Below are positions 11,254-64,000 of a DNA stretch of 64,000 nt, in pieces. The notes under the pieces are model-generated. The model was given only the letters and a program-made list of their open reading frames with translations, was not told the DNA's origin and searched no databases. Positions within the stretch are counted from its first letter, which is position 1. Each line of letters starts with the position of its first letter. The position numbers were made by a program, and so were the translations under genes. Source of the DNA: Pseudomonadota bacterium. GTDB lineage: Bacteria > Myxococcota_A > Polyangia > JAAYKL01. The stretch lies in the NCBI GenBank assembly GCA_023229365.1, contig JALNZK010000002.1, positions 62,343 through 126,342 of the forward strand, in the 5' to 3' direction.

Positions 11254-11259
11254 AAATAG

Positions 11260-11728: not shown

Positions 11729-11818
11729 ATATAAGGAAAAGATTGCCAATCTTTATTACAGCAGCACAACCTTTGCAGGAAACCCTGGGAAAAGGATTTT
11801 ATGGCCACAAACCTTGAG

Positions 11819-11890: not shown

Positions 11891-11922
11891 AAAGGATAAA
11901 CCAAATTGTCAAAGATCACAAG

Positions 11923-11993
11923 TGGGTCCACGGGGAATCGAACCCCGATAAACTGGGTAAAAGCCAGTTATTCTGCCATTGAATTACGAACCC
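11923..11993 (-). tRNA. tRNA-Lys (TTT), second copy
   Basis: Acceptor GGGTTCG/TGGACCC, D-stem ATTC/GAAT, anticodon stem ACTGG/CCAGT with loop CTTTTAC, T-arm CGGGG-TTCGATT-CCCCG. Confidence 0.55.
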
Positions 11994-12643: not shown

Positions 12644-12698
12644 AATAGAACCTTGCCTTTCTACCTATATATAATAGCAAAGTTCTATTTTTTTCAAG

Positions 12699-12772
12699 TC
12701 GTGGCTTTGAGAGTCGAACTCAACACGGAATCCTTATCAGGGATTCCAGGGCAAACCGGCCCGTCAGCCACG
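12699..12772 (-). tRNA. tRNA-Ile (GAT)
   Basis: Acceptor CGTGGCT/AGCCACG is perfect. Anticodon stem (GG)AATCC/GGATT(CC) with loop CTGATAA. T-arm TTGAG-TTCGACT-CTCAA. Confidence 0.6.
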
Positions 12773-12777
12773 TATTT

Positions 12778-13488: not shown

Positions 13489-13537
13489 TTTTGTTTCTGT
13501 TGTTTTTGTTGCTTCGACATTATTCTTTTTCCTTCAG

Positions 13538-13611
13538 TGGCGGGAGTAGGATTTGAACCTACGGCCTCAAGGTTATGAGCCTTGCGAGCTACCAGACTGC
13601 TCCACCCCGCA
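13538..13611 (-). tRNA. tRNA-Met (CAT), initiator-like (1:72 mismatch)
   Basis: A standard 73-nt cloverleaf. Acceptor TGCGGGG/TCCCGCC has an unpaired position 1:72. D-stem GAGC/GCTC. Anticodon stem CAAGG/CCTTG with loop CTCATAA. T-arm GTAGG-TTCAAAT-CCTAC. Confidence 0.55.
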
Positions 13612-13632
13612 TCATGTTTTCAAAAATTAAGT

Positions 13633-13703
13633 GGCAGGGGCGGGGGATGATCCCGCTTTCATTTGGTTATGAGCCAAATAAGATAACCGTACCTACCCCC
13701 TGC
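13633..13703 (-). tRNA. tRNA-Met or tRNA-Ile2 (CAT)
   Basis: Acceptor GCAGGGG/CCCCTGC is perfect. Anticodon stem TTTGG/CCAAA with loop CTCATAA. The T-loop is atypical (ATCATCC). Confidence 0.45.
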
Positions 13704-17134: not shown

Positions 17135-17839
17135 TCAGCCCTGCAATGCAATACCAAACTTCTCTCGCATCAACAGCTTTGCTTTTTGAAGCAATTGATG
17201 GATATACGGACTTGATACCCCCAATTGCTTGGCAATCTCTTTCAGTGTTTTTCTTTCAATATAATGTTCGTGAAGAATTTGTTTTGCTCTTGTTGTAAAA
17301 AATGTATCGCCAGAATGCATGGTGAACAATTCATCTACCAAGTCTGCGTTTGAAGACCGTGGATCAACAATTTGCATTTCAGTGAAGTCTACCAACTCTT
17401 CATGATATTTTATTTTTCTTTGTTTATATCCATCAAGAATGGCATTTCGCATACAGCGAATAGCATAACTAGACCATGTGCATTCATGTTGCTGGGCTAA
17501 GTCTGGTGTCCAGCTTTCCACGGCTCTCCACAAGCCCATCAAAGCATCGGAATATTCTTCGCTATTTTCTACATCTTCATTAGACTTGAGAAAAGTTAAA
17601 GCCGAAGAGCGAGCCAGCTTCAAATTGGCCTCGACGGTTGGCTTGACGAACCTTAGCTCTTGTGTGCTTTGGTCGTCTTGCAGTCCCGATGTAGAAATAG
17701 GGGACGGAAGAGTGAACGATTTTTTCTTCAAAGCAATTGTCATAAAGCCCTCGCAGACCAAAGTGTTTTTGCACTTCGGACCAACTTGCTTACACGACAA
17801 GCACTTCGGACCAACCTGCGTTGATGATTTAATAGACAT
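17135..17839 (-). CDS. sigma-70 family sigma factor (second copy)
   Basis: C-terminal region 4.2 helix-turn-helix (TLKEIAKQLGVSSPYIHQLLQKAKLLMREKF) and a region-2-like segment (ALMGLWRAVESW...YAIRCMRNAILDGYKQRK). Confidence 0.55.
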   Translation of the reverse strand: MSIKSSTQVGPKCLSCKQVGPKCKNTLVCEGFMTIALKKKSFTLPSPISTSGLQDDQSTQELRFVKPTVEANLKLARSSALTFLKSNEDVENSEEYSDALMGLWRAVESWTPDLAQQHECTWSSYAIRCMRNAILDGYKQRKIKYHEELVDFTEMQIVDPRSSNADLVDELFTMHSGDTFFTTRAKQILHEHYIERKTLKEIAKQLGVSSPYIHQLLQKAKLLMREKFGIALQG

Positions 17840-20037
17840 TACAACAAATTCTTCAAGGTGTCAACATCAATGATGGGAATTCCTAACGCCGTTGCCTCAG
17901 CCGACTTATCACCACTACCATCTCCAGCCACCAGATATTTTACTTTTTTGGATACACTTCCAGCACACTTGCCACCCAATTCTTCGATCTTTGCTTTCCA
18001 GAATGTTTTACCTTGCGGCAAACTACCACTGAGGCAGAAGGTCACGCCTGTTAGTTTTCCGATTTTGGGAAGTTGCAAGTCAAAATGTTGCAGCAGCCGG
18101 TTGATTTCTTGCGAATGCAATTGCAGGTAAGAATAAATGATTTCGGCTGTCTTTTTACCAACCCCATCCGTGCCCTCAAGTTCATTAACGCTAGCTGCCT
18201 GTATCTTGTCAATACCCCGAAAGTGAGAAATTAAAGATTTTCCCGAATCCTCCCCTGCTGTGGGAATACCCAGGGCAGCAAAGAACTTCCAGGCATCCAC
18301 CTTCTTGGGGGTTTTAATTGCTGCTGTTATTTGTGTCGCAAGCTCTTTATCATCAATATGTTCGGGATCGTGAATCATATGAATGGCAGCCACGGTCAAC
18401 AGTGATTCTCGCTCCGAAAGCCCTGCCGCCATGCAATCTGCGGCGGAAAGAGAATAAAAATCGGCTCTGGTGGTAATTTTACCACTGGACATGAGCATTT
18501 CAACAGTTGCCTCTCCCAATCCCAGGCAACCCAAGACCTTAAACCAATGACAATAATTGCTCAATTGCTTCGCTGGACAGTCGGAATTCTCACATCGAAG
18601 TTCCCACATTTCCTCCCTATTACCTTTGGCGGGGGTGTGAATACTGGCCGTAGGCTTGCCACACGATGGGCAAGTTTTGGGATAGGTTGGGTCACACGAA
18701 TTAGATTTGACACCCACCACCTTGGGGATAATGTTCCCGGCTTTTTGGACAAGTATTTCTGTGCCCAGGCCAATTTTCTTACGAATCATAAATCCGAGAT
18801 TATGGAGCGTGGCACGGGCTACATTCGTGTCGGCCAAGCGAATGGGAGCAAAAATAGCAACGGGTTTAATGACCCCAGTGCGACCCACATTCCACTCAAT
18901 GGCTTTAATGATTGCAGGCTCACGTTCCTCAGCGAATTTCCAAGCAATCTTGCCCCGTGGATTACCATCGGGTTTATCACCGTGGGTGCCCAAGTGACTC
19001 TGTTCATCCAAGCTTTCTACACCAATCACAATCCCGTCAACCCGATAATCCAGAGAGGGGACTTCTGCCTCCATCTTTGCCAAATCAAAGAAATTAAAGC
19101 TTCTGCTTTGCACAAATCGAATGCATGGCTCATTCGGATGTGCTGAATCGTAGCCCAGATTTTTATTGACCCAAATAGCCTTTTCGGTTTCGGTACTGTA
19201 AGGAATAGGGGAACTATCATTCCACGTAATCCCATGAGCAATGCAAGTTACCAAATGATATTTGGTTTTCTCGGGATCATTGAATTGTCGGATACCACCG
19301 ACTGCCGCTGATCGTTGGTTAGAAAATTCTTTTTCCCCCTGTTGTCGCTTCCAATCTTGAACCTTGGGGAAATCGGAAGTCAAAACAATCAATTCACCCC
19401 GAATGGCACATGTGATCGGAACTTTGAGCTTTGTGGGAATGCCCTTCACATATTTGGCTTGCTCTGTGACATCTTCCCCATATTCTCCATCCCGTGGACG
19501 CAAACCAGCCGAAACCAATTCCCCCTTCTCATAATAGAATTGAATAGAAACTCCATCCAATTTCCATTGCTGATAAAAATAGCCACGGGGATAAGTTACG
19601 TTGCTGCCCTTGTATTTCTCTCCATCCAGAACATAAAACTTGCCTTCCCGAACCGACTTGGGGGCTTTCTCTGTGCAATCTGAAATCCACTTCCAAAGTT
19701 GTGCTTTTTGGATTTCCAAATCCTCATGGCTTGCTTTGTCGATGGAGGTCAGCAATGGGACGTGTTTTACCTTCTTTGTGGAAATTACCCGCTTTGAAGC
19801 CGTAACAGTTTTGAAGATTTTGGAGTCAGAACGATTAGCCTGGAGGGTGCCCTTGAGCATATCGTATTTTGGGTCGGATACGGGGGTTGCAGCATCCAAC
19901 CCCAAGAGTTTCAACATATCATCCGATGTATCGGCGGGGATTAGGCAATCTTCGCCGTCATCAAATCGAGTATCCAACTCAGCAATAATGGCTTCCAACT
20001 CATCGCACTGACTGGCATTCAATTTCGGGTAATTCAT
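17839..20037 (-). CDS. ligA: NAD-dependent DNA ligase LigA
   Basis: 732 aa with the ATLHN OB-fold motif, a Cys4 zinc finger (CPSCG...CENSDCPAK), helix-hairpin-helix repeats and a C-terminal BRCT domain (FCLSGSLPQGKTFWKAKIEELGGK). Confidence 0.85.
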   Translation of the reverse strand: MNYPKLNASQCDELEAIIAELDTRFDDGEDCLIPADTSDDMLKLLGLDAATPVSDPKYDMLKGTLQANRSDSKIFKTVTASKRVISTKKVKHVPLLTSIDKASHEDLEIQKAQLWKWISDCTEKAPKSVREGKFYVLDGEKYKGSNVTYPRGYFYQQWKLDGVSIQFYYEKGELVSAGLRPRDGEYGEDVTEQAKYVKGIPTKLKVPITCAIRGELIVLTSDFPKVQDWKRQQGEKEFSNQRSAAVGGIRQFNDPEKTKYHLVTCIAHGITWNDSSPIPYSTETEKAIWVNKNLGYDSAHPNEPCIRFVQSRSFNFFDLAKMEAEVPSLDYRVDGIVIGVESLDEQSHLGTHGDKPDGNPRGKIAWKFAEEREPAIIKAIEWNVGRTGVIKPVAIFAPIRLADTNVARATLHNLGFMIRKKIGLGTEILVQKAGNIIPKVVGVKSNSCDPTYPKTCPSCGKPTASIHTPAKGNREEMWELRCENSDCPAKQLSNYCHWFKVLGCLGLGEATVEMLMSSGKITTRADFYSLSAADCMAAGLSERESLLTVAAIHMIHDPEHIDDKELATQITAAIKTPKKVDAWKFFAALGIPTAGEDSGKSLISHFRGIDKIQAASVNELEGTDGVGKKTAEIIYSYLQLHSQEINRLLQHFDLQLPKIGKLTGVTFCLSGSLPQGKTFWKAKIEELGGKCAGSVSKKVKYLVAGDGSGDKSAEATALGIPIIDVDTLKNLL

Positions 20038-27536: not shown

Positions 27537-28583
27537 TCATAGCTCCATAAATTTCAACTTCTTTTGTGCTTCTTTTTTGTGCTTCAAATTACCCCATTGA
27601 ACCATACGATTCAATATCCACTTTTTTAATTCAAATAACTCATCCGACAATAAATAAACACCTTTATCTTTTTCTAGTCCCAAATACCTCAAAAATTCCT
27701 CCAAAGTAGGTACTTGGGAAAAATCAGTCGGCATAATTTTGTTTTTTGAAAAATCCACAAACCACAAATATAAATATGTCCAATTAATAATTTCCGAACT
27801 GGTTAATGTGCCCTCTGGCATCCGTAATTCTACTGTTTTACGACTCGTATCATATCCCCCATGCCCTGCTTCACCCCTTATGGCAGCCGCATAGTTCACC
27901 AAATTTATTGCCAATTTTTTTTGAGGATTCTCATGTACATTGAGATTTGAAGGCTTAATATAACGCCAATAATCTTCTGGAGTTTCAAATACTCCTTCAT
28001 ACTTAAAATGTTTTCCCAATAATTTGCAATATTTATTTGTGCGGCGATGTGGTGGAAGCATTTGGCATATCCACGGCTCTATTTTAATCCATCGAGCAAC
28101 AAGAACGGCAACTTGCTCTGGGGCAAAATCTTTAACTTCTGCGTGAATATGAAGCCCACAATTATTGTTGACTTCTACACCAGCTTTTCGCAAAGCATCT
28201 GCCACATTACCTATGTGCAAAAGATCACGCTGGCCCTGGGCGATAAACGAAGCAACTTCCCATCCACCATTGTCTTTTTTCTTGCCGAGCGGACCACAGG
28301 TGCTGTCATACTTGACATGCCAATAATCATTTTGGCTGGTTTGTGCCCATCCTGGGCAATCGTCACCAAAAATACCATCTGTTACCACAATGTGCCGAGA
28401 AGATTTTTTGGCAATAATATCTCTAATGTATTGTTTGCTAATACATGGATGACGATAGCCAAACTGATCGGTCCACACTGATTCTTTGGAAGAACCACGG
28501 ATAACTTGATTTTTTACGCTGCTGACTTCTAATTCAATACCAAAACGACGCTTGCTATTAAATTTTTTGTATTCTATGAGCAT
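27537..28583 (-). CDS. hypothetical protein, possible amidoligase-family enzyme
   Basis: The N-terminus RRFGIELEV resembles the G.E.E start of the putative amidoligase family. This is a weak call. Confidence 0.3.
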   Translation of the reverse strand: MLIEYKKFNSKRRFGIELEVSSVKNQVIRGSSKESVWTDQFGYRHPCISKQYIRDIIAKKSSRHIVVTDGIFGDDCPGWAQTSQNDYWHVKYDSTCGPLGKKKDNGGWEVASFIAQGQRDLLHIGNVADALRKAGVEVNNNCGLHIHAEVKDFAPEQVAVLVARWIKIEPWICQMLPPHRRTNKYCKLLGKHFKYEGVFETPEDYWRYIKPSNLNVHENPQKKLAINLVNYAAAIRGEAGHGGYDTSRKTVELRMPEGTLTSSEIINWTYLYLWFVDFSKNKIMPTDFSQVPTLEEFLRYLGLEKDKGVYLLSDELFELKKWILNRMVQWGNLKHKKEAQKKLKFMEL

Positions 28584-51471: not shown

Positions 51472-51520
51472 GAAAAACCCTTTCTTGTTCTATATAAGAA
51501 AGTTAGCAAATTAAAAAATT

Positions 51521-52624
51521 ATGATATTTGCTCCATTATCTCCGCAATATATTCGCAATTATGAACATTTGACACATTACCAAACAGTGGCTCTCCGTTA
51601 CCTAAAAAAAAAGGCCGGAACATCAACAAACAATGTTGTTTTACATACCTCTGGCACAACCACTGGTTGTGCAAAAATGTACAAATATTCTGTGCCTGAA
51701 TTTGTAAATATTGAAAAATATCATTTTAATAAAATTTGTTACCTAAACAACCTAAATCCCAGGCTACGCATTGCATGGATGGTGTCAACAGCCAATTCAC
51801 AGTCTTTAAGCATTGATGGTCCATCCACTATTGCATCTCTAAACAACAATGTTTATACAATTTCAATCCCTTACAATGCCAATAAACAACAGTGGGAAGA
51901 AGCGTATGACATAACTGCCCAAATATGTCCAGATTTGGTCTATACGACACCATCTACTTTTATGGCGTCTTATTTTGCCACAGAAAACAAAACACCACTT
52001 AACTGTGTGGTTATGTTTAGCTGTGAGACCTTGTTTGACGACACTCGTGATAAATCACTCAAAATATACACATCTGTTATAGATAAAATGAGAGCGTGGG
52101 ATACGGGGCTAAGCTTTATAGAATGCAGGTACGGAACAAAACATATTGATGACGAATTATGTCTTGTTGAACAAAATAACTACAACGAAATTACAAGCAC
52201 AGATTTTTTCAATTACAGCCAACCATACGCCTCTTGTAAAACCGATGATCTGGGCGTAATACAAACAAAGAGTTGCCAATGCGGCATTTATGGCAGGGTC
52301 TTTACAGAATTTACAGGAAAGTCTATACAATGTCTTTGGGATAATAACAAAACGCCTTGTGACCCACATACAATTACATCATTTATATCTTCATTTCTTA
52401 AATCAAAAAATCAAACACCTGTGCCGTATATGATTCGACAAAACAAAAAAGGAATAATCACCTTATTTATAGATCAGCAAAATGAGACATCTGTATTGAT
52501 AACAAAAGATGTGTTAAAAGGATTATTGCATCAACCAGTGCAAATAGAACAATATGAGAATGCTCCAAGAAACAGCGACAATAAATTACTCTTTATCTCC
52601 TCCGAGTTCTCCTCTGTGCAATAA
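51521..52624 (+). CDS. adenylate-forming enzyme (PaaK / F390-synthetase-like)
   Basis: VVLHTSGTTTGCAKM matches the AMP-binding SGTTGxPK motif. The 367 aa size fits the PaaK/CapK family. It is convergent with the radical-SAM maturase. Confidence 0.4.
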   Translation: MIFAPLSPQYIRNYEHLTHYQTVALRYLKKKAGTSTNNVVLHTSGTTTGCAKMYKYSVPEFVNIEKYHFNKICYLNNLNPRLRIAWMVSTANSQSLSIDGPSTIASLNNNVYTISIPYNANKQQWEEAYDITAQICPDLVYTTPSTFMASYFATENKTPLNCVVMFSCETLFDDTRDKSLKIYTSVIDKMRAWDTGLSFIECRYGTKHIDDELCLVEQNNYNEITSTDFFNYSQPYASCKTDDLGVIQTKSCQCGIYGRVFTEFTGKSIQCLWDNNKTPCDPHTITSFISSFLKSKNQTPVPYMIRQNKKGIITLFIDQQNETSVLITKDVLKGLLHQPVQIEQYENAPRNSDNKLLFISSEFSSVQ

Positions 52625-53917
52625 GAAATAATACAATCCTACAATTGCATTATTGATAGTCCATCGAATTGTTTGACAACCACCATAATGGCATTTTTCA
52701 CAATTGTATTTCTTGTGTCGTTCTACACAACCTCCACCACAACTAGGTAATATGGGGCAATGAACACACTCCGTATCTTCACAGGGACTAATTGCTATAG
52801 CACTGTCTTCCTCTGCCAGTTTCATGTCATATATGGTTCCAATGGCGTCTTCGTCGCTTATTCCACCAATACATTTGGTCACATTACCGTTTGGAGCTAT
52901 TGTGTAATAAAATCTCATATTCTTCATGCACCCCGGTAAGGTAGGAGCAAGAAACCTATATACTTCTGTCTTTCCTTTCAATGCTTGAATAGTATCATTG
53001 GTCACAATGGCAAAATCTTCTTGCTTCATGCCCAATTGATTTGGAAATCGAGTCATCGCTGGCGATGGATTAACAATACCACCGGCAGAATTTCTCTGAT
53101 TGAGACCTTTGTTTAATATATCATCTAAAAATTGCTTGTATTGTTCAGAGTTTGAGTAATCAAGATTACTTCGCACATCTATTTCCAATCCCTTAGAATA
53201 TCCAGCAATTAAGTTCTCCATAATAATGTCATAAGAAGATGGGTTGGCACCAATTAAAGGTCTTCTTGCGTCATGTATTTCACGCATCCCATCAATAGTA
53301 ATTTGAACACTACGACAATTGATTGACAGCAATCGATCTATCATTTCGTTGTCTAATAATGTGCCGTTAGTAATAATATTGTTTGAGAATTTCACCCCTC
53401 TATTTTTGCAAACATCTTTAATTTTTTTGGCAAGATCACATACTATATTTGGGCACAACAACGGCTCGCCGCCATACCAAGTTATAGAAAAATTTATTGT
53501 AGGGGTGGAAGAAATACAATGGTCAATAAATCGCACAAGCTGATCTTGTACATCGGATGACATGTCGGTAGCCATGCAATATTCTTTGCACTCTTTTTCA
53601 TAACAATAAAAACAAGCTGCATTGCAGCGACTAGTCACAACAATGACAAATTTCTTCTCTTGATTGTTGTTAAGATGATCTACATCAGTTTGTCGAAAAG
53701 TTGCAAACTCATCCTCATCAACAGGCACTAAAAATTTGTGTTTGCGAAGCTTTCTTTTGAACTTACTTAAACATAATGTGCTGTCGGCTATTTTTTGAAA
53801 ATCCTTTAATCGATCATTCAATTTTATCAATGTGCCAGACACTTGGTTGTACAATAACCAAACATCTTCATGCTGCACCAATATGTTGTATTTAGAAAGT
53901 TTATACCTTTTAAACAT
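52586..53917 (-). CDS. radical SAM/SPASM peptide-maturase-like enzyme
   Basis: CNAACFYC (Cx3Cx2C) follows a roughly 95 aa N-terminal extension that looks like an RRE. The C-terminal SPASM region carries extra cluster cysteines (CEDTECVHCPILPSCGGGC...CEKCHYGGC). Confidence 0.75.
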   Translation of the reverse strand: MFKRYKLSKYNILVQHEDVWLLYNQVSGTLIKLNDRLKDFQKIADSTLCLSKFKRKLRKHKFLVPVDEDEFATFRQTDVDHLNNNQEKKFVIVVTSRCNAACFYCYEKECKEYCMATDMSSDVQDQLVRFIDHCISSTPTINFSITWYGGEPLLCPNIVCDLAKKIKDVCKNRGVKFSNNIITNGTLLDNEMIDRLLSINCRSVQITIDGMREIHDARRPLIGANPSSYDIIMENLIAGYSKGLEIDVRSNLDYSNSEQYKQFLDDILNKGLNQRNSAGGIVNPSPAMTRFPNQLGMKQEDFAIVTNDTIQALKGKTEVYRFLAPTLPGCMKNMRFYYTIAPNGNVTKCIGGISDEDAIGTIYDMKLAEEDSAIAISPCEDTECVHCPILPSCGGGCVERHKKYNCEKCHYGGCQTIRWTINNAIVGLYYFLLHRGELGGDKE

Positions 53918-53929
53918 CTTATCCCTTTA

Positions 53930-54133
53930 TCAAGCTACCATATTGCTACAACAACCACTACAACCACAAACGCTACTAAAATCTGCTAATACAGTCTGAC
54001 AAGCGTGGGGAGCATCTGTTCGAACAAATACTTCACACTCATCAAAGGAAAACAATCCATTAAACAAAATACGAAACAACTTGGGATACCATTTTCGTTG
54101 TTGAGTGCAGGATTTTTCACTTGTTGCTAACAT
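53930..54133 (-). CDS. Cys-rich small peptide, candidate RiPP precursor
   Basis: 67 aa with a strong AAGGAGG Shine-Dalgarno. Its stop lies 13 nt upstream of the radical SAM gene. The C-terminus is cysteine-dense (SSVCGCSGCCSNMVA). Confidence 0.45.
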   Translation of the reverse strand: MLATSEKSCTQQRKWYPKLFRILFNGLFSFDECEVFVRTDAPHACQTVLADFSSVCGCSGCCSNMVA

Positions 54134-54162
54134 TGTACCTCCTTTAGGACAAGCATATATAG

Positions 54163-56781
54163 CTAGTCTATAATAGTAAAATCTTCCTTGATTTTATCTA
54201 TTACATCTTGTTTGACTATGGCACTTTCCGGCCAACGCAAAACATTCAAACGACCATCTTGGCTTTTTTCCTTAGGCACCATTTCTTTCCTAAGCTCTCT
54301 GGGGAAACTTTCAAATGTGTAATCTTTCCAATCCCCCATAGGCTTTTTAAGCCTCATTTGTAATAAATTGCCCCACTCGCATGTCGGCTCCCACCAAGCA
54401 ATTTCTTCCTCAAATCTTTCAAAATCATCTTTCCAAATAGTAACAGTTTCTGCTCTTCCATTGCCGTCCACAACTTTGACCTTGTATCCTTTCTTAGACT
54501 TCATAATTCGAGGCTTCTCTATTATCTGCACCTCCACCGGCTTAATGGCATGATCGCCCTGTGCAATTGCTATATCGAACTCCTCAAAGGTTCTTCCTTT
54601 ATAATCAGGAGATTGCGTCAACACATAATCCCAAGGAAAACCATAATATTTGTTTTCGGCAATAGACAAGTGATGTGATAATAAAACCTGCATTTCGTGA
54701 TCTATTTTTCCCGATGGATTCCAATTATCCATTGTGATAACGGTATCGAGTGCTACCTTTTTCTCATTGTTGGCTTTAGATTTGTTATATTGATTGATGG
54801 CTGTAAAAACATCTTCGGCCATGCCGTCCAAACACATAGCACTATGCTTTTCAATAAATTCCTTTTTCTTCAGGTCTTTAAACTGAGCACACCAATCGCC
54901 ATCTATTATTTTCTCATATTCTGATTGTACTAAGGATATAATTTCATCTAGACGATCTTGTTGAGAAGTAATATATCTCTTATCTCGATCTTTGCGTGAT
55001 TTGCTTTTGCAACGATAGAATTCAGCAAATTCATACAAAACCATCGGTTCATCAGAAAAAACCCGTAAAGCAATCAGTGGCTTCAAAACATCAGCATAAG
55101 TGCCAAATCGTTCCATAAAATCTACAAAAGAACTATAGGGCTGTCCTGCCACGATTTTTTCAGCAACCTCATCACCAACACCCTTAATGTCCGCAAACCC
55201 TAAATATATTTCATTGTCTATAATTTCAAAATGAACCTTCGACTTATTGATATCAATACGATTGATCGGCACCCCAAATCTTTGGGCTTCTAATCTGTAT
55301 TCTTTAATCTTGTCAGCATTTTTTTCACAACTCAAAATAGCTGCAAAGAACTCTAAAGGATAATGAGCTTTCAAATACAACAGCATTGCAGAAACAAACG
55401 AATATGAAGTAGCATGACTTAAATTGAAAGCATATCCCGAAAACTTTGCTATACTCTCAAAAAATTCATTAGCTTCTTGCTCAGAATAATCCAATCTTTG
55501 TTGGCATTGTTCCAAAAATTGAACTTTGGCTTTTTGGAAAACCTCGCCTTTTTTCTTGGAAATAGCCTTCACAATTTTATAACATTGAGGCAATGGAAAA
55601 CCCCCAATAACATTGAAGATTTTCATGATCTGTTCTTGGTAACACATCACCCCATATGTTTTTTCCAAAATAGGCTTTAACAATGGATGCAACTCGTATG
55701 GCTCGCCCTTTTTTCGCTTACAATAGGTGGTGTGGAGTTGAGAGCCCATAGGACCAGGACGATATAAACTAGTGAATGCCACTAGATCATCAAATGAAGT
55801 CACACCACCCTTTTTTGCCAAATCCCTAATGCCGGGAGAATCAAATTGGAAAATGCACTTTAATTTTGCTTCGTTTGCCAAAGCAATAGCATCAGGATCA
55901 TTTTGGTACTTCTCTGTGTCCGACCAATCATCCTGTGCCTCTAAATTACACATCCTGTCGATACCGTATCGCTCACGAATCAATTTCAAGCACTTAGCTA
56001 TTTGCACTAAGTTTGTAATAACCAATACATCGACTTTCACCAATCCTACAGGGGCCAAGTCTTGAGCATGCAGTCCTTCAGTCCATGCTGAAAGCGGATT
56101 GCCTTGCTTGTCCACAACCAATGGAACAAAATCAGCCAAGGGCATGCTAGAAATAATCAAACCACCAGCATGTTTGCCCATTCCCCTTACCCTGCCATAC
56201 AATCGCTTGGCAGCATCATATACCTCTGGATATTGCTCGCAATAAGCAGCCAATTCCTTGTTTAGCTCCAAAGCTTTTTCCCACGTAATGGGTTTATTTT
56301 CATCATCTTTATCTTCAATCTGGGTGGTAACCGTGTTGACTTCATCATGACTCAAGCCATAAACTCTGGCCATATCCTGTAAAGCAGATTTGATGCCATA
56401 AGTGGCATAATTACCAATATTACAAACATATTCCGCCCCAAAGGTTTGGGGAGCCCAGACATTTTTTAACCACTGTTGAATTTCAGGCAAGAAATCTGAA
56501 TCTATGTCGGGGAACTCGGCAATAAACGTAAACTTTGGCGGTTGGCTGATATCAAATTCATCGGCTAGTCCTAAAAGATGGACCACCAACATATTGTTTT
56601 CATTTTTGGCAAACTTACATTTTCTTTCGTACAAATCCACTAAATAATAGTGCTCATCTTGCCAGTCGATATGTCTAAACTCCAATTTCAGACGATCTGC
56701 ATATTGAGCGTTTGAACATAGTCCTAAGCTCTCTATTTTTTGCTGGCACAACAACTGTAGCTCTTTTTTATAATCTCTCAT
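54163..56781 (-). CDS. dnaE: DNA polymerase III alpha subunit, lacking N-terminal PHP domain
   Basis: Pol III alpha palm and fingers signatures (GMGKHAGGLIISSMPLADFVPL, GLVKVDVLVI, FDSPGIRDL, LYRPGPM). At 872 aa it has no PHP-type N-terminal region. Confidence 0.8.
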   Translation of the reverse strand: MRDYKKELQLLCQQKIESLGLCSNAQYADRLKLEFRHIDWQDEHYYLVDLYERKCKFAKNENNMLVVHLLGLADEFDISQPPKFTFIAEFPDIDSDFLPEIQQWLKNVWAPQTFGAEYVCNIGNYATYGIKSALQDMARVYGLSHDEVNTVTTQIEDKDDENKPITWEKALELNKELAAYCEQYPEVYDAAKRLYGRVRGMGKHAGGLIISSMPLADFVPLVVDKQGNPLSAWTEGLHAQDLAPVGLVKVDVLVITNLVQIAKCLKLIRERYGIDRMCNLEAQDDWSDTEKYQNDPDAIALANEAKLKCIFQFDSPGIRDLAKKGGVTSFDDLVAFTSLYRPGPMGSQLHTTYCKRKKGEPYELHPLLKPILEKTYGVMCYQEQIMKIFNVIGGFPLPQCYKIVKAISKKKGEVFQKAKVQFLEQCQQRLDYSEQEANEFFESIAKFSGYAFNLSHATSYSFVSAMLLYLKAHYPLEFFAAILSCEKNADKIKEYRLEAQRFGVPINRIDINKSKVHFEIIDNEIYLGFADIKGVGDEVAEKIVAGQPYSSFVDFMERFGTYADVLKPLIALRVFSDEPMVLYEFAEFYRCKSKSRKDRDKRYITSQQDRLDEIISLVQSEYEKIIDGDWCAQFKDLKKKEFIEKHSAMCLDGMAEDVFTAINQYNKSKANNEKKVALDTVITMDNWNPSGKIDHEMQVLLSHHLSIAENKYYGFPWDYVLTQSPDYKGRTFEEFDIAIAQGDHAIKPVEVQIIEKPRIMKSKKGYKVKVVDGNGRAETVTIWKDDFERFEEEIAWWEPTCEWGNLLQMRLKKPMGDWKDYTFESFPRELRKEMVPKEKSQDGRLNVLRWPESAIVKQDVIDKIKEDFTIID

Positions 56782-56844
56782 AATTCTACTATCACTATAT
56801 CAGTTTGCTTGCATCAAATCAACAGATAATCACTAATTTAAATT

Positions 56845-57987
56845 ATGAAAAACCTATCTTTTTATGTCTGCCAAACTGTCAATGAGAGTGGGGAAAAAGT
56901 CTATTTTAACACCCTCACAAGGCAACAACTGCCCATTTCTGCGACCTTTGACGAGTTGGAGTCCAATTTGTTTTTATCGGGACAAGAAAGAGAGTCCTTG
57001 TTGAAATTGTTGATAATTCATGACCCCCCAAAGTTTCTAAACTTTAACATAGCACCAACATTGGAATGTAACTTACGATGCACACACTGCAACTTCTCGC
57101 ATCTTTTAGAAGCAAAGCAACAAAAACCATTAAATGTTGATAAAATTTGTGATTTTATAATACGATCTAATGTCAAAGATATCTGCATATTTTTTTATGG
57201 TGGAGAAAACCTACTGGAAGAAGAAAAATGCCATGAAGTTATAGACAAGATCAAATCTCATGCAAACATTTTACACATAGGCATGGTCTCTAATCTAACG
57301 ATTGATCTAAATGAAAGAAGATTATCTTTAATTGAAAAATTAAGCCAACTAAGCATTAGTTTAGATGGTGGTAATGATTTGTTGAACGATGCACAAAGAA
57401 TACCACTCACAGGTAATTGGAGTCCATTTGAAAAAACAACCAATAATTTGAAAATATTAATAACCAAAGGACTGAGGCACAAAATCAATTTGAAAGCTTC
57501 TTTTGGCGATGCATCCAATACACCAGAACTACGAAAAGAATATTATCTCTTTGCTCTTCAGTTTGGATTTAAACCTGAACAAATAAACATAGGGCTTATC
57601 GGACCACATTCCGAGTGCAGGAAAACCACCAAATCTTTTGCTGATATATTGTTAAAACCTATATTCACGCCTACATGGTGTTGTAAATACAGACATGAAG
57701 TATTATTAACCGACTATACAGAAAATATATTTAGCGATTATTATACATATACAAAGATAGGAAATTTATCAGATAGTTTGAGTACAATCATAGAGAGAAG
57801 AAATGACCTAATTTTAAAAACCATGCCCTTGCTAAATGACACAAAATGCATGAAGTGTCAAGCAGCAGGGTATTGCTGGGGAAGCTGTGCGATGTTGGAT
57901 TTTGTTGGGGGAAAAAGCAATTTTTGCGATCCAGTAGCTCTTCAACACCAAATACAAAAAATGGCCAATGACAACAAACTATGCTAA
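56845..57987 (+). CDS. radical SAM/SPASM peptide-maturase-like enzyme (second copy)
   Basis: CNLRCTHC (Cx3Cx2C) follows a roughly 70 aa N-terminal extension. The C-terminal SPASM motif is CMKCQAAGYCWGSC. Confidence 0.7.
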   Translation: MKNLSFYVCQTVNESGEKVYFNTLTRQQLPISATFDELESNLFLSGQERESLLKLLIIHDPPKFLNFNIAPTLECNLRCTHCNFSHLLEAKQQKPLNVDKICDFIIRSNVKDICIFFYGGENLLEEEKCHEVIDKIKSHANILHIGMVSNLTIDLNERRLSLIEKLSQLSISLDGGNDLLNDAQRIPLTGNWSPFEKTTNNLKILITKGLRHKINLKASFGDASNTPELRKEYYLFALQFGFKPEQINIGLIGPHSECRKTTKSFADILLKPIFTPTWCCKYRHEVLLTDYTENIFSDYYTYTKIGNLSDSLSTIIERRNDLILKTMPLLNDTKCMKCQAAGYCWGSCAMLDFVGGKSNFCDPVALQHQIQKMANDNKLC

Positions 57988-57996
57988 GGAAAAAAA

Positions 57997-58170
57997 ATGA
58001 TGACAACACTAACAGATGCAGAAAAAATCACTTTTGAGTGTCCAGATGCAGAAAAACTACAACAATTGCTGGACGAGTGCTTGTGTATGGAAATTAATGC
58101 GGGCACCAATTCAAATTCTACTGCTGGCTATGTTTGTGCTTGCCCCGTATATACAATTTCAATAACCTAA
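57997..58170 (+). CDS. Cys-rich small peptide (57 aa), candidate RiPP precursor; absent from the supplied ORF track
   Basis: An AAGGA Shine-Dalgarno precedes ATGATG, 9 nt after the radical SAM stop. The peptide is MMTTLTDAEKITFECPDAEKLQQLLDECLCMEINAGTNSNSTAGYVCACPVYTISIT. Its stop overlaps the ATG of the next gene (TAATG). Confidence 0.4.
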   Translation: MMTTLTDAEKITFECPDAEKLQQLLDECLCMEINAGTNSNSTAGYVCACPVYTISIT

Positions 58171-59258
58171 TGAATCTTTTGCAATGTTATAATCAATATT
58201 ACAAAAACCCAACCCTTGAAAGTGCCAAACTTTTATGGCAAGAAATTCAGTCCTATAACTTTTGCGATTATGTCGATTTTGCTTCAGATGTAAAAGCTGC
58301 CCGTGAGGATTGTAAAAATTTTAGTTCAATTTCTCTAAGGACAAATGGCTCCACAAATATACCTCGGGAATATAAATTTGGTCCGTTTTTCGATTTTTGG
58401 ATCAATAGCATGGAGTCTGCAATCAAGCCAAGCATAGGGAAAACAATATACATTCAATCAATGTTTCCTTGCGGAGATAAAAAAAATGCTATTATGCGTG
58501 TTAAAGATAATTCTCTTATGGATTATGCTGGCATTTTTTATTGGGACCAAAACAATGCCCTATCTTTTTTGATAAATTTCCTTCATAGCGTAAAAGAGCC
58601 AATCACTATCAGCACCGTCTCTAATACACTACTTTTTCTATTAGAACAAAAAAGTTTCTTAGAGTTCTTAAAACAAGACAAAATACTTGCTATCCGTACT
58701 TTAGATTGGGAGCCTTTTTTCAAATCCAGCAAAATACCATCCTCGATCCACCTTAATAACAACATGGTTGATTGGTCAATCACATCTAACTTTTACACCT
58801 GCCCATTTCGCACATTGCATTTTTTTCCAACTTTTTCTGGAAACACAAGCTTAATCAATCTTGCAAATAATCAAATTGAATCTGATGATTTATTTGAAAT
58901 CAATCCGCAAGTCAGAGTGTGTAATTGTGGAAAGTCATATTTAAACTTCAAATTTATACCGCATGTCAACAATGCAATAAAAATAAACAATAAAATAATA
59001 TACGAACCAAGTTTTATAGAAAAATTAGATTCTTGCTATTTAAACCTTCAGTTTGTTCAAACAGGGCAAGAAACTATTGATATATTATATATTGGAAATA
59101 TATCACAACATGACAAAGATGCCATCAACACATTGTTTGAAGGTAGAACTAATTTTGTAAGAAACAAATATCTCGTAATTGGAAGAAAACTAATTTGCTT
59201 TTACCGCAATTCCAATAACATTCCTTACCAATCATATTCTGGCATCACAATTTTATAA
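58170..59258 (+). CDS. hypothetical protein (possible second PaaK-like enzyme, weak)
   Basis: Start reassigned to MNLLQCYN, which is translationally coupled to the peptide ORF. The listed upstream part overlaps the peptide in another frame. Confidence 0.4.
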   Translation: MNLLQCYNQYYKNPTLESAKLLWQEIQSYNFCDYVDFASDVKAAREDCKNFSSISLRTNGSTNIPREYKFGPFFDFWINSMESAIKPSIGKTIYIQSMFPCGDKKNAIMRVKDNSLMDYAGIFYWDQNNALSFLINFLHSVKEPITISTVSNTLLFLLEQKSFLEFLKQDKILAIRTLDWEPFFKSSKIPSSIHLNNNMVDWSITSNFYTCPFRTLHFFPTFSGNTSLINLANNQIESDDLFEINPQVRVCNCGKSYLNFKFIPHVNNAIKINNKIIYEPSFIEKLDSCYLNLQFVQTGQETIDILYIGNISQHDKDAINTLFEGRTNFVRNKYLVIGRKLICFYRNSNNIPYQSYSGITIL

Positions 59259-59892
59259 TCAACTTCTTTAATGATCCTATTTCCGTCTTCGACAAAGGCT
59301 TGGATTTCCTGCCCTCCCAATTGGTTGTTCTCACACCATGCTCAATATGCTGTATCACCAACTTTTGTAATGTTTTTTTAGAATCCCAGTAATCTGCAAA
59401 CACATCATCATACCATCCAGCAGTGTCCCAATCTTCTGGATAGTATTTTAGCCTCGTAGCATGAAACAACTGAAAAAACCCAAGTATACGCATGTTGTCA
59501 CCATCAATATACATTTGTTTGCCAGAAATATTGTCAATTTCATACCTTACCGCCCCATATAAAAACTCTTTATCTAAAGTCAATCCTTCGATTATTTCCC
59601 TAAAGTTATCTGGAAGAATGATATCTGCGTCTAAAGCAAGCATCCAATCTTTTTTATCCAAATAACTTATGGCATCATTTAGTCCCTTACCTTTGTTAAA
59701 TGCTGCACCGCCTTCATAAAATCGACTTGATTCAACACATTCTATTTGATGCTTTTTACACACACTCTTGGTTGCCACATCTTCTGTCGAAGTAATGATT
59801 ACCCATCTGTCAAAATGCTTTTTGTTTGAATATAAACACACATCCAAAAAATCACTATAACCCACGCAAGATGTAAAAACTTCTAAATACAT
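59245..59892 (-). CDS. DxD-motif nucleotide-sugar transferase-like protein (paralog A)
   Basis: LALDADIILP DxD motif. It is about 60% identical in amino-acid sequence to the adjacent gene. Confidence 0.4.
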   Translation of the reverse strand: MYLEVFTSCVGYSDFLDVCLYSNKKHFDRWVIITSTEDVATKSVCKKHQIECVESSRFYEGGAAFNKGKGLNDAISYLDKKDWMLALDADIILPDNFREIIEGLTLDKEFLYGAVRYEIDNISGKQMYIDGDNMRILGFFQLFHATRLKYYPEDWDTAGWYDDVFADYWDSKKTLQKLVIQHIEHGVRTTNWEGRKSKPLSKTEIGSLKKLIIKL

Positions 59893-59894
59893 AA

Positions 59895-60563
59895 TTAGGC
59901 GAATTTAATTACCGATTTGCTGAAAGTGCTAACATCGTTTTTGGATAATATTTTTGATCTTCTGCCACACCAATTTGTTGCAACAATCCCATGTGGCATA
60001 TGTTCGACTACTACATCTTCCAACATTCTATGTCTTCCGTTCCAATAAGACACAAATTCCAAATCATAATTTCCAGCATGGGGATAAGATTCTGGATAGA
60101 CCTTGGCCCTTTGCATAACATCAGAATGTCCATTAAACAATTGAAAATAACCCCAGGGCGAAATTACAGGAGTCACATCAGTCCAACATTGGCATGTATC
60201 CAAACTTTTCCTTGGAACTCCATATAAAAAATCATTATTCAGTTTTTTAGCACCAATCATTTCCCTAAAATCAGCAGGAAGAATAATATCAGCATCTAAG
60301 GCAAGAACCCAATCTTTCTTAAACAAATGATTTATAACATCGTTTAGTGCTTTTCCTTTATTAAATTTATCTCCATTATTATAAAATCTTCGAGACTCCA
60401 CACACTCAACACCACTTTTCTTGCATATGTTTTTTGTGTTTTCATCTTCTGAGCTTGTGACAACAACCCATCTGTCAAAGTGCTTTTTATTTGCACTTAT
60501 GCAAATGTTTAAGAAATCACCATAATTCACACATACTGTAAAAACTTCCAAATAATTAATCAT
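59895..60563 (-). CDS. DxD-motif nucleotide-sugar transferase-like protein (paralog B)
   Basis: It is a tandem duplicate of 59245..59892 (YLEVFT.CV.Y.DFL..C...NKKHFDRWV). Confidence 0.4.
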   Translation of the reverse strand: MINYLEVFTVCVNYGDFLNICISANKKHFDRWVVVTSSEDENTKNICKKSGVECVESRRFYNNGDKFNKGKALNDVINHLFKKDWVLALDADIILPADFREMIGAKKLNNDFLYGVPRKSLDTCQCWTDVTPVISPWGYFQLFNGHSDVMQRAKVYPESYPHAGNYDLEFVSYWNGRHRMLEDVVVEHMPHGIVATNWCGRRSKILSKNDVSTFSKSVIKFA

Positions 60564-61623
60564 ATGCCCTTAGTGTGAAATCAATAAAACTACTGTTAAT
60601 GTTTTCTATTCTATCGCCTTTTATTTTATATCCTATTTGATTGGTTCCCTCATAATGAGTCATATCTTCATTTAATTTTAATTCGTCCCGCCAAATACCT
60701 TTGTCTGTTGGCCATCTAAGACTGAGATTTAAACCATCAATGGACCAAGTTTCTGGACCTTGTGGAGTGTTTAATGTTCCATTTGGATAAGCCACAAATC
60801 GTCTGTGTTTTCGACCATTAACATAGTGTTCCCAAACTCCATCAAAAGAAAACTTGGGCATTCGCTCTTTAACCACGCCTTTTTTAAAAAATGGCTCCAA
60901 AACATCTTGCACAACATCTTCCACAACTATCGATAAATTTGCCTGTTTAAACCAATCTCTATAAGTCACTAGTGGCTGATTTGTTTTCTGAAAATTTCCT
61001 TCGAAACCATATCCCATTTCTTGCAACTCATCTTCTGTAAAGACTAAATGCACATAAGCCTTATTGATATGTTTGTATAAGTGTCCACCATGTCTTGATA
61101 AAAACGGATGACAACGAACAAAAATATCTGTATTTTTATTTGCTACCTCTCTTACTTTGGTTAGGATGCCTACAGGATCAGTTGAATGATCTAGAACATC
61201 ATAAAGCATGATAAAATCAAATGGCGACATTGCTTTAATTTTATCAAAATTAGTGGTCAATAAATACTTACCCTCTTTTTCCCACTCAAAAGAAGAACTC
61301 TCCACAATGTCGTACCCTGCTGCTTGTGATCCCAACTGAGAAGCCACAACAGCAACATGTCCTAAGCCACAACCAAAATCTAAGAACTTTTTGCCATCAA
61401 CCTCCCAATTAGAGAAATTAATGATTGAATCGGCACGTTCAAATAAATCATCTTCAGATTCCATGCATATTAGTTCTTGGGGCACCGCAACAGGCCAACT
61501 TTCACTATGTAACAAATCTTTTAATTGTAGAATTTTAAACTGGGCATCCCAAACTTTACATTTTGTCAAAAATGTTCTGATTTCATCCAAAGATTGCAGC
61601 ACTTGCTCTACTGTTTCTATCAT
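60556..61623 (-). CDS. class I SAM-dependent methyltransferase
   Basis: LDFGCGLGHVAVVASQLG is SAM-binding motif I, and an acidic motif II (YDIVE) follows. Confidence 0.65.
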   Translation of the reverse strand: MIETVEQVLQSLDEIRTFLTKCKVWDAQFKILQLKDLLHSESWPVAVPQELICMESEDDLFERADSIINFSNWEVDGKKFLDFGCGLGHVAVVASQLGSQAAGYDIVESSSFEWEKEGKYLLTTNFDKIKAMSPFDFIMLYDVLDHSTDPVGILTKVREVANKNTDIFVRCHPFLSRHGGHLYKHINKAYVHLVFTEDELQEMGYGFEGNFQKTNQPLVTYRDWFKQANLSIVVEDVVQDVLEPFFKKGVVKERMPKFSFDGVWEHYVNGRKHRRFVAYPNGTLNTPQGPETWSIDGLNLSLRWPTDKGIWRDELKLNEDMTHYEGTNQIGYKIKGDRIENINSSFIDFTLRAYD

Positions 61624-61633
61624 AATTACACCA

Positions 61634-62428
61634 TTAAAAAAGCGGCTTATTATATCTACTAATTCTGTTACTTTTTATCAAATTGTAATAATTCCACCCT
61701 CTGTGAAATTGATTACGATTAGATTCTACAAAATGATATCCATCAAAATTATTCATGTTAAAATTTTTGTAACTACAACACACCTTACTATCTAAGTGTA
61801 TTTCATTGGGATGTAGCTCAAGAATTTTGTCTTTCGATATGGTAATTTGATCCTTATGCAAAAAAACCAATGCTAATAATCCTTGCTCGTCCGCAGAGTT
61901 TAAATTTTCAAGCTCGCCATACTTACGCCACACTCTACATATATCTTTTTGAAAATCATGACCAGGAACCAATCCAATCAAACCAGAGTTGTATTTTTTT
62001 GTCTTTGGTAGATAACAACTATATCGTCCAAAATATCGAGTTGGCTCATCCAAACACAAACACCTTTTGCCGCCAAGAAAATCGTCTATTTCTGGCAAAT
62101 GTTTGCAAATTACAACATCATTATCCATTATAATTTCATATGACTCTATCCTTATTCTAGCTGGGCAAAGTTTCCATAGCGTTCCGAGATTTTCCTGTGA
62201 GAGAGGGCAATCACAAATCTTCTGCTCATATAATGTGAGTAAATGAATTTTGGCAACTTCTCTAAGCCTATCAAGCTGTGCTTCAGTCAAATTATTGTAA
62301 CACACAAACCAATCAAAATTATCTCTGCCCAATGCGTTTATTGTTTGAATGACCGATTCCTCAAAAATATGAAACCCAACCCTTGAGGGCCTTCCAATTG
62401 TCCATCGAAATATCGGCTTTAAAATCAT
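61634..62428 (-). CDS. hypothetical protein, possible glycosyltransferase
   Basis: The N-terminus KPIFRWTIG resembles the DXD sugar-transferase family start. This is a weak call. Confidence 0.3.
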   Translation of the reverse strand: MILKPIFRWTIGRPSRVGFHIFEESVIQTINALGRDNFDWFVCYNNLTEAQLDRLREVAKIHLLTLYEQKICDCPLSQENLGTLWKLCPARIRIESYEIIMDNDVVICKHLPEIDDFLGGKRCLCLDEPTRYFGRYSCYLPKTKKYNSGLIGLVPGHDFQKDICRVWRKYGELENLNSADEQGLLALVFLHKDQITISKDKILELHPNEIHLDSKVCCSYKNFNMNNFDGYHFVESNRNQFHRGWNYYNLIKSNRISRYNKPLF

Positions 62429-62429
62429 A

Positions 62430-63242
62430 TCAGTTAAATTTCACTTCATTTTTATCTACCACATTAGATAAAAAATCATCCAATGTTTTGTGTTTTTCAG
62501 GGTGTAAATGACCGGCATATACCCTGATTTTTGGATCAATGGGCAGTTTCCACTTGCTACAATAATAATAGTAACTCCACACATTGCTTAAGTCATAAAG
62601 TCTTTGGTCGGAAAGATTGTGTTTTTGATGCAACTCCACACAATCAATAGGTAAAAATCTTCCGCCACAAACAATAGCTTTTCTCCAAAAATCATAGTCC
62701 TTATACCCCCATGCCTCAAAATCAGCACTAAATCCCCCATATTCCCAATAAGTTTTTTTTGCAAACAATACGCATCCAGCAAACGGGTTTTTATGCCCCA
62801 CAATATCTACATTTTCTACCCTATGATCCGGCACCAATAAAGACTCATGCTTATATGGATTATCTCTCACCATTCGTATAGAAGAAATATCTACATCTTC
62901 TTTAAAAGAAAACAGATATTTGGGAAAGATAAACAATCCATCTTCTATCAATGATGCATTGTTTAAAAAGTTTGTAGGAAGAATTCTATCGCTGTCCAAG
63001 TACCATATGTGATTGCCACTACTGGCCTCAATGGCTGCATTAAGGGCTTCGCCAAGCCGATAAAACTTTCCTCTTCTCTCTATCTCTAAAACTCTCCACC
63101 CCTCTGGATGTATGTCTGTTTGTCCATCCACACATAAAATTTTTTCACATGTGGCAACATAATCCATATCATTCAGACAATCAATCGTATTAATAAGCTG
63201 TCTGTGACGATCTGTAGAGTATAAAACAACAATACTGAGCAT
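62430..63242 (-). CDS. hypothetical protein, possible glycosyltransferase
   Basis: The N-terminus LSIVVLYSTDR is a GT2-like start. This is a weak call. Confidence 0.3.
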   Translation of the reverse strand: MLSIVVLYSTDRHRQLINTIDCLNDMDYVATCEKILCVDGQTDIHPEGWRVLEIERRGKFYRLGEALNAAIEASSGNHIWYLDSDRILPTNFLNNASLIEDGLFIFPKYLFSFKEDVDISSIRMVRDNPYKHESLLVPDHRVENVDIVGHKNPFAGCVLFAKKTYWEYGGFSADFEAWGYKDYDFWRKAIVCGGRFLPIDCVELHQKHNLSDQRLYDLSNVWSYYYYCSKWKLPIDPKIRVYAGHLHPEKHKTLDDFLSNVVDKNEVKFN

Positions 63243-63245
63243 ACT

Positions 63246-63938
63246 TTATTTAGCAAGAAATTCATCAGGTTTTGTTATTTTGTCGCCAGGACATGGACAA
63301 ACCTCTTCTGTTCCGAATTTTCTTGCATAATTCTTGTTTAATCCGTCACAAATTAAAGACAATCTACAATCCATGCACTTGGGGGAATATGTGTAGCTTT
63401 CTCCCGTAAAAACTTTGGCCAAATGTTCATACGCACCTGAGTCTTCCATGAAATTATACAAACCTCTTGACACCTTTGGTGCAGGTGCGGAAGAGTTTAC
63501 ATCCGACCAAGATTTATAATCCCACTCGTAGTTGTCATATGGTAATTGTCGATAATTATAACATTTGTTTTCATGCCCATATAGAAAACAAAATGGCATA
63601 TACCTTACGGCAGTATGCATGCTGTGTATATCGCAATAATTTAATGCCTCATGTAAACAATCTTTCATTTCAGAAAAACGAGCTATTAAATCAAATGTTT
63701 CATCATGATCTCTGAATAAATTACAGGAAATATAATTGATTGTGCGACACCCCTTTGTGTATACAAATTCTGCTATGTTTTTTAAAGCTTTAAAATTAGT
63801 TTTATTGATAGTGACATTTGTGCGAAATGGTATGCTCAAATGAACCAAATTATCTAACGCCTTCTCAACCCTGGAAAAACTGCCATTCACACCAACGACA
63901 TCATCATAAGCAACCCCCAAATTATGAACAGAACACAA
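63246..63938 (-). CDS. SPASM/twitch-like C-terminal domain protein (possible split radical SAM)
   Basis: It has a TTG start, CMDCRLSLIC (Cx2Cx5C) and CPCPG. An upstream minus-strand gene ends at 63948 and runs off the window edge. Confidence 0.3.
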   Translation of the reverse strand: MCSVHNLGVAYDDVVGVNGSFSRVEKALDNLVHLSIPFRTNVTINKTNFKALKNIAEFVYTKGCRTINYISCNLFRDHDETFDLIARFSEMKDCLHEALNYCDIHSMHTAVRYMPFCFLYGHENKCYNYRQLPYDNYEWDYKSWSDVNSSAPAPKVSRGLYNFMEDSGAYEHLAKVFTGESYTYSPKCMDCRLSLICDGLNKNYARKFGTEEVCPCPGDKITKPDEFLAK

Positions 63939-64000
63939 AAAATCCTCTATTCCAGCATCCTTAAATTGTTTGGCAACATCCAGATCGGCAAGAGCTTGCA

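Follow-up and report, generated by a model that had tools for sequence, protein, structure and literature searches.

Small cysteine-bearing precursor peptides encoded beside a radical S-adenosylmethionine (radical-SAM)/SPASM maturase are known from peptides that are synthesised ribosomally and modified after translation (RiPPs) such as the SCIFF pair CteA/CteB, in which CteB is a thioether-forming peptide maturase, and the freyrasin pair PapA/PapB, in which PapA has a regular Cys-X3-Asp spacing. A phage-borne RiPP is also known: sublancin, encoded by the Bacillus prophage SPβ, undergoes S-glycosylation by a GT2 enzyme and requires neither a radical-SAM enzyme nor an adenylating ligase. Here we analyse a cassette of about 2.4 kb (56845..59258, + strand) in a stretch of 64,000 nucleotides of contig JALNZK010000002.1 (positions 62,343 to 126,342, assembly GCA_023229365.1), hereafter the window, which has the appearance of a huge-phage segment. 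The cassette encodes, in this order, a radical-SAM/SPASM enzyme, a cysteine-rich protein of 57 amino acids (aa) and a predicted PaaK-type adenylate-forming ligase. From sequence comparisons, we consider it probable (about 0.7) that the small protein is a RiPP-like substrate of the two enzymes.

The locus resembles the CteA/CteB and PapA/PapB systems in that a small cysteine-containing peptide is encoded beside a radical-SAM/SPASM enzyme, and in that the peptide family combines a conserved N-terminal part with a cysteine-bearing C-terminal part. It differs from them in that it has a PaaK-type ligase as an obligatory partner, in that its setting is huge-phage genomes rather than Firmicutes chromosomes, and in that its thioether chemistry is putative. 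The peptide itself is distinct from both precursors: with five cysteines, of which two are conserved, as against six cysteines in about 45 C-terminal residues, it does not match the SCIFF precursor model (NCBIfam, E up to 1), and it lacks the Cys-X3-Asp spacing of PapA. With sublancin the locus shares a cysteine-containing peptide and a modifying enzyme on a phage genome, and glycosyltransferase genes lie near the cassette in the window and in its relatives; unlike sublancin, however, the window peptide is at most a possible target of glycosylation.

The small gene (57997..58170, +) was unlisted because of the 60-aa cut-off of the ORF (open reading frame) track. The frame is present as an earlier note on this DNA had described it, and its codon usage, its position, its profile matches and the selection acting on its family all agree with a gene. 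Its product, MMTTLTDAEKITFECPDAEKLQQLLDECLCMEINAGTNSNSTAGYVCACPVYTISIT (57 aa), can be initiated at either of two adjacent ATG codons (ATGATG, 57997..58002), the second of which, at 58000, would give a product of 56 aa, and the stop codon is TAA 58168..58170. The small ORF entirely fills the 182-nt gap between the radical-SAM gene and the gene for a 362-aa protein downstream, which it overlaps in a TAATG stop/start (58168..58172, +); both the double ATG and this overlap had been pointed out before. An AAGGA Shine-Dalgarno-like site (57986..57990, +) lies 6 nt before the first ATG and 9 nt before the second. The earlier note had placed this site 9 nt after the radical-SAM stop codon, which is the position of the first ATG; the AAGGA itself overlaps the last two bases of that stop codon (TAA, 57985..57987). 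Shine-Dalgarno-like 4-mers were found upstream of 24 of the 51 long ORFs in the window, compared to 6.8% of random positions. No such motif occurs in the 20 nt preceding the ligase start at 58170, which would fit re-initiation at the TAATG. Of the five cysteines of the peptide, C15 stands alone and the others form two CxC pairs, C28-L-C30 and C47-A-C49. The number and the CxC arrangement had been read correctly before, whereas the CxxC arrangement reported with them does not occur in the peptide. Residues 1 to about 33 are leader-like, and the remainder, a putative core, contains T37-N38-S39 and C47-x-C49.

Only 172 of 20,000 dinucleotide shuffles of the gap (0.86%) yielded an ORF of at least 56 aa starting with ATG. 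Under a codon usage model derived from 37 long genes in the window, the log-likelihood of the small ORF was 13.9, compared to a median of 14.1 for true in-frame 57-codon windows and a 99th percentile of 5.95 for off-frame windows, and the remaining five frames of the interval scored between −20 and +3. Two alternative frames, 58016..58165 (+) and 57984..58109 (−), were rejected on the same measure (−19.8 and +3.1, respectively, vs. 13.9). Rfam gave no match for the interval, promoter- or terminator-like sites are not enriched in it, and as RNA it is less stably folded than shuffled controls (z = +1.35); a structured RNA, an internal promoter and a terminator in the gap were rejected on these grounds. 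Public gene calls include the ORF in its 57-aa form (IMG) and its 56-aa form (Logan/ENA), the contigs being 340 kb and 100 kb long. In NCBI, we found no entry for the small protein, and both neighbouring proteins are present (e.g., MCK9458349.1). The shuffles, the codon usage, the Shine-Dalgarno enrichment, the negative results for Rfam, promoters and terminators, and the public gene calls make a chance ORF unlikely, and 57997..58170 is very probably a real protein-coding gene.

Comparison with related loci shows that the slot of the small gene is conserved in those loci whose neighbourhood could be read. We identified seven homologues of the radical-SAM enzyme (30-46% identity), and the loci of all seven have, immediately beside the radical-SAM gene, a small ORF (66-137 aa), with a ligase homologue of 359-375 aa next to the small ORF wherever the contig continues. 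Beside the radical-SAM gene, the small ORF encodes 137 aa in locus L002, 83 aa on the contig of P0005, 92 aa in L004 and L005, 66 aa in L010-L012 and 72 aa in L013; L006 has two small ORFs in tandem (90 and 91 aa), and L009 has one of 69 aa in the gene order peptide, ligase, radical-SAM enzyme. Use of the ligase alignment to scan IMG/VR and metagenomes added 23 loci. Among the ligase-anchored loci flanked on both sides by at least 3 kb of sequence, 10 of 11 carry a radical-SAM gene of the same clade, and nearly all ligase-anchored loci have a small cysteine-rich ORF. Three gene orders occur, and the variation of gene order while the three genes stay linked argues for functional linkage. At every junction among the three genes in the relatives, the neighbouring genes overlap or lie no more than 12 nt apart. 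A small ORF adjoining modifying enzymes, with the linkage conserved across genomes, is one of the patterns by which RiPP systems are recognised. Frame-breaking indels in homologous genomes, which the earlier note had regarded as decisive against the gene, are not what the relatives show: they keep the frame open, which favours a gene.

A profile of eight foreign peptides, from which the window sequence was excluded, ranked the window ORF first among 1156 six-frame segments (E = 0.0011; runner-up, 0.5), and a profile of 18 peptides matched it with E = 0.0096. Common to the family is an N-terminal block, φ-[TS]-[DE]-x-E (L5-T-D-A-E9 in the window peptide), and a second one, P-x-[DE]-[DE]-E-[IL]-x3-L-[DE] (P16-D-A-E-K-L-Q-Q-L-L-D26); in the closest clade, these are accompanied by a T-N-S block and then a C-x-C pair. 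C47-x-C49 is the sole invariant cysteine pair of the family, and C15, C28 and C30 vary. The C-terminal part is rich in Cys, Gly and Ser and variable in both length and sequence, with total lengths of 57-137 aa, so that the family alignments show the conserved leader and variable core that characterise RiPP precursors. Family members are under strong purifying selection, with dN/dS (the ratio of nonsynonymous to synonymous substitution rates) of 0.085 for the tandem pair of L006, 0.09-0.10 for L004 vs. L006, 0.087 for L027 vs. L030, and 0.20 for L010 vs. L015. The tandem copies (L006, 5738..6294; L014, 3426..3988), of 90 and 91 aa, are 81% identical; the region around the CxC is identical between the copies, and both ends differ. 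Searches of Pfam, NCBIfam (E up to 1) and PHROGs found no family for the 57-aa peptide, and curated models are lacking for the peptide family as well as for the ligase family. When the peptide, the radical-SAM enzyme or the ligase was used as a single protein to scan IMG/VR, nothing was found; the relatives surfaced only in word-independent HMMER searches and with alignments. An N-glycosylation sequon in the TNS block was considered and rejected, as the relatives have no N-x-S/T there (alignment read by eye).

The first gene of the cassette (56845..57987, +) encodes a radical-SAM/SPASM peptide-maturase-like enzyme of 380 aa (Pfam Radical_SAM, E = 8.7e-10). Its top NCBIfam matches are RiPP maturases, namely PapB (1.2e-15), HxsB, CcpM, lachnocin and others, with weak matches to TIGR04463 (4.8e-11) and CefB (3.9e-7); the SCIFF maturase model TIGR03974 is not among its best 25 NCBIfam matches listed. 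Across eight homologues, the invariant cysteines are C75-X3-C79-X2-C82, C279/C280, C335-X2-C338-X5-C344-X3-C348 (CX2CX5CX3C) and C361. The enzyme thus combines the CX3CX2C motif with the SPASM-type auxiliary-cluster cysteines of sactipeptide and ranthipeptide maturases, with a CC pair in place of the usual C-X9-15-G-X4-C element. The AlphaFold2 model (pLDDT 81) has CteB as its best solved relative (Foldseek, 1e-13; profile search, 1.1e-17), followed in the Foldseek comparison by anSME, ChlB, SuiB, EpeE, TigE and SkfB, with BlsE and DesII among the weaker matches. In the model, the radical-SAM core is preceded by a unit with three strands and two helices at the N-terminus (residues 8-56); the enzyme aligns over most of its length (Foldseek) with CteB, which bears a RiPP recognition element (RRE). 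The radical-SAM enzyme of thymidine hypermodification, also considered, is unrelated.

The third gene (58170..59258, +) encodes a protein of 362 aa. The start listed for it in the ORF track, TTG 58134, had already been suspected of being wrong, and this is borne out by the homologues of the 362-aa protein, whose first residue corresponds to ATG 58170, the start that public gene calls likewise use. The N-terminal consensus of the homologues is MxLxxxYxxYYxxP, and the window protein from ATG 58170 reads MNLLQCYNQYYKNP. In structural modelling, this protein emerges with high confidence as a divergent PaaK-type adenylate-forming ligase of the ANL superfamily, with a predicted two-domain, PaaK-like adenylate-forming fold. 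Membership is not detected at the sequence level: of 73 members of the ligase family, none matches the Pfam AMP-binding or the NCBIfam PaaK or F390-synthetase models, PHROGs has no match for the family, and PDB sequence searches with the single sequence and with a profile found nothing. The family, which comprises at least 171 sequence clusters, has the consensus SNGSTG (TNGSTN in the window protein) and an invariant K340, which, judged from position rather than from structural superposition, may correspond to ANL motifs A3, the phosphate-binding S/T-G-S/T-T-G, and A10, with its catalytic C-terminal lysine. Compared to the PaaK family (phenylacetate-CoA ligase, 2-hydroxyisobutyryl-CoA ligase (HCL), ClxA and F390 synthetase-related proteins), the ligase shows 8-13% identity; PaaK and HCL exceed it in length by about 70-110 residues, and, unlike the PaaK-family ligases, it is tied to a peptide and a radical-SAM enzyme. 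Its closest compact structural relative is the amide ligase ClxA, which is reported to form amide and ester bonds and not CoA thioesters (PMC12519233, PMC9400959). Three cysteines and one histidine of the ligase (C211, H217, C251 and C253) are invariant in the 73 family members, which suggests a structural Zn site.

A conserved leader-like half, a variable cysteine-bearing half, tandem copies, and linkage to a SPASM radical-SAM enzyme that is related to maturases together constitute the anatomy of a RiPP precursor. We therefore favour a model in which the three genes form an operon, on a huge-phage-like genome, whose small product would be the ribosomally made substrate (precursor peptide) of both enzymes. 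The conserved N-terminal part would serve as the recognition (leader) region, and the variable C-terminal part that bears the C-x-C would be the part that is modified. By analogy with CteB and PapB, the likeliest reaction of the radical-SAM enzyme would be the formation of intramolecular thioether cross-links of the sacti- or ranthipeptide type from these cysteines, a proposal that we make tentatively and with somewhat more doubt than belief. The ligase, with ATP, would activate a carboxylate, either on the peptide, where the C-terminus or an Asp or Glu side chain would be candidates, or on a small acid that would then be joined to the peptide. The peptides differ at their C-termini, which makes it unlikely that a particular C-terminal residue is recognised. 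Still more speculative is the wider scenario of a new and apparently phage-restricted class of ribosomal peptide product, in which a SPASM radical-SAM enzyme and a hitherto unrecognised branch of PaaK-type ligases would act jointly on a cysteine-containing peptide, the ligase bringing a reaction new to RiPP pathways, for example acylating or cyclising the peptide with ATP or transferring a thioester onto cysteine in place of CoA, with possible decoration by neighbouring glycosyltransferases and methyltransferases, and in which huge phages would deploy the product in infection.

Several observations weigh against a RiPP-like precursor. The window peptide's match to the family has modest significance (E about 1e-3 to 1e-2), and word-seeded protein searches with the peptide and with the ligase returned the window's own genome only and nothing closer. 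The window peptide is the shortest and most diverged member of the family, without the G-C-x-x-C tail that ends its nearest relatives, such that it could be a decaying copy. The radical-SAM enzyme misses the cut-offs of the curated maturase models (57.6 bits vs. 340 for PapB, NF047865; 54.5 vs. 370 for HxsB, TIGR03978; and 46.3 vs. 500 for CcpM, TIGR04068) and, being under all such cut-offs, is not assigned here to any of these families. No protease or exporter gene was found near the cassette, and it is possible that the peptide is no target of the ligase.

Among the alternatives to a precursor role, the strongest, which we nevertheless regard as unlikely, is that the small protein is a cysteine-containing accessory subunit, that is, a metal or Fe-S helper or an electron donor for the radical-SAM enzyme, or an MbtH-like partner of the ligase. 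Small partner proteins of ANL-type enzymes are established, such as the MbtH-like proteins that accompany the adenylation domains of nonribosomal peptide synthetases, and a protein that is always encoded beside both enzymes and has two invariant cysteines would suit such a role. However, a span of 57-137 aa and a low-complexity, hypervariable C-terminal half are atypical for a folded subunit, two invariant cysteines would by themselves not suffice to hold a cluster or a Zn ion, and the peptide gene exists in tandem duplicates. The relatives of the radical-SAM enzyme, moreover, are all peptide-modifying, and the MbtH model was matched neither by the window peptide (Pfam and NCBIfam) nor by nine related peptides (NCBIfam).

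More improbable still is an independent cysteine-rich effector, for example a disulfide-stabilised toxin, an anti-defence protein or a virion mini-protein, that merely shares the operon with enzymes acting on a sugar or nucleotide of the neighbouring gene island. Such an arrangement would accommodate the glycosyltransferase and methyltransferase genes that adjoin the cassette in the window and in many relatives, as well as the use of non-peptide substrates by other SPASM radical-SAM enzymes (BlsE, DesII) and PaaK-like ligases (HCL, ClxA), whereas it leaves unexplained why the three genes are kept together despite changing surroundings and gene order, and why the best relatives of the radical-SAM enzyme are peptide maturases and not sugar-modifying enzymes. 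That the spacer contains a chance open frame, or acts as an RNA, and that no peptide is made is very improbable, since the shortness of the ORF, the roughly 18% of all six-frame 57-codon windows that are stop-free (real genes included) and a direct homology of only about 1e-3 for the window peptide are opposed by codon usage typical of the window's genes, the rarity of such ORFs among the shuffles, a homologous ORF under purifying selection in the same slot of all relatives, the Rfam and folding results, and the predictions of two independent public gene callers.

The window contains a second cassette with similar components (51521..54133). Its ligase-like protein (51521..52624, +; 367 aa) is a paralogue of the ligase described above (hhalign vs. 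the ligase family, probability 97%, E = 1e-10) and matches the NCBIfam F390 synthetase-related model at 1e-8, which is below the cut-off. A second radical-SAM/SPASM enzyme, RiPP-maturase-like and of 443 aa (52586..53917, −), is encoded convergently with it, with a 39-nt overlap of the two genes. Compared to the first radical-SAM enzyme, it shows 22% identity (BLASTP, E = 4e-6). Its best matches are the maturases of TIGR04463 ('rSAM_vs_C_rich'; 2.3e-57) and CefB ('Cys-every-fifth'; 3.7e-53), which act with cysteine-rich peptides, and its scores lie under the cut-offs of both families (194.7 vs. 525 and 180.9 vs. 600, respectively); we know of no ligase partner in these systems. Directly upstream of the second radical-SAM gene lies a small ORF for a cysteine-rich peptide of 67 aa (53930..54133, −). 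A strong Shine-Dalgarno sequence, AAGGAGG, precedes its ATG by 5 nt, and its C-terminal sequence is CGCSGCCSNMVA. The earlier note, in which this was the first peptide, proposed to compare it with the 57-aa peptide and suggested a common FDEC/FEC/DEC motif. The two peptides have no alignable similarity, and a sub-family hidden Markov model misses the 67-aa peptide; because similarity is not detectable, and with C15, C28 and C30 not conserved, the motif is unsupported.

The parent contig of the window is 340 kb long, and several window ORFs match phage protein families. PHROG matches include an RtcB-type RNA ligase (74..1480, −), an NAD-dependent DNA ligase (17839..20037, −) and an amidoligase-like protein (27537..28583, −). 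A gene for the DNA polymerase III alpha subunit adjoins the cassette. An array of 15 tRNA genes (8269..13703, −; two His, four Lys, two Trp, one Cys, three Gln, one Ile and two Met) is typical of huge phages. IMG/VR contigs of 112-354 kb are among the related loci, which carry genes for gp32, RecA/UvsX-like proteins, DnaB and dCMP deaminase. Next to the cassette, an island on the opposite strand (59245..64000, −) encodes a pair of GT2-like paralogues (215 and 222 aa), a methyltransferase of class I (355 aa), two proteins that match no family (264 and 270 aa), and a third radical-SAM enzyme, the gene of which starts beyond 63246. Glycosyltransferase and methyltransferase genes flank the cassette also in L004, L006, L009, L010, L027 and L030. 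In L002 (1606..3364, −), a further radical-SAM gene (303 aa) overlaps an R2K-type ATP-grasp gene (296 aa), and the two may be a further peptide-modification pair.

Neither a DNA search of 51500..59300 nor a tblastn search with the ligase found anything among 50,697 deposited phage genome records, and a scan of 185,579 representative prokaryotic genomes of GTDB with the ligase alignment, limited by its single pattern, found no relative. A scan of the GTDB representatives with the radical-SAM alignment identified two full-length relatives only, both on contigs of metagenome-assembled Acidobacteria genomes (L037, 3342..4655; L038, 85..1041; GC about 60%; 31-32% identity to the window enzyme) and neither with a ligase or a family peptide alongside. 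In L037, the radical-SAM gene adjoins an ORF of 1065 aa that, by eye and with no family search made, resembles an efflux-pump membrane protein. A literature search, which cannot prove absence, found no description of a cassette of radical-SAM enzyme, peptide and PaaK-type ligase in phages or elsewhere, and nothing relevant on a RiPP pathway with an enzyme of the phenylacetate-CoA-ligase type.

For annotation, these results illustrate that the cassette loses its key gene to a 60-aa cut-off and that the start of the ligase gene is misplaced when the longest ORF is taken. Taken together with the comparisons above, the cassette appears as a RiPP-like radical-SAM system that is new in its partner enzyme and in its type of host. 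Radical-SAM peptide maturation, well known in bacteria, would here take the form of a conserved module of uncultured huge phages that includes an uncurated family of adenylating ligases. If both enzymes indeed modify the peptide, this would represent a new enzyme partnership for RiPP biosynthesis and a new kind of phage product.
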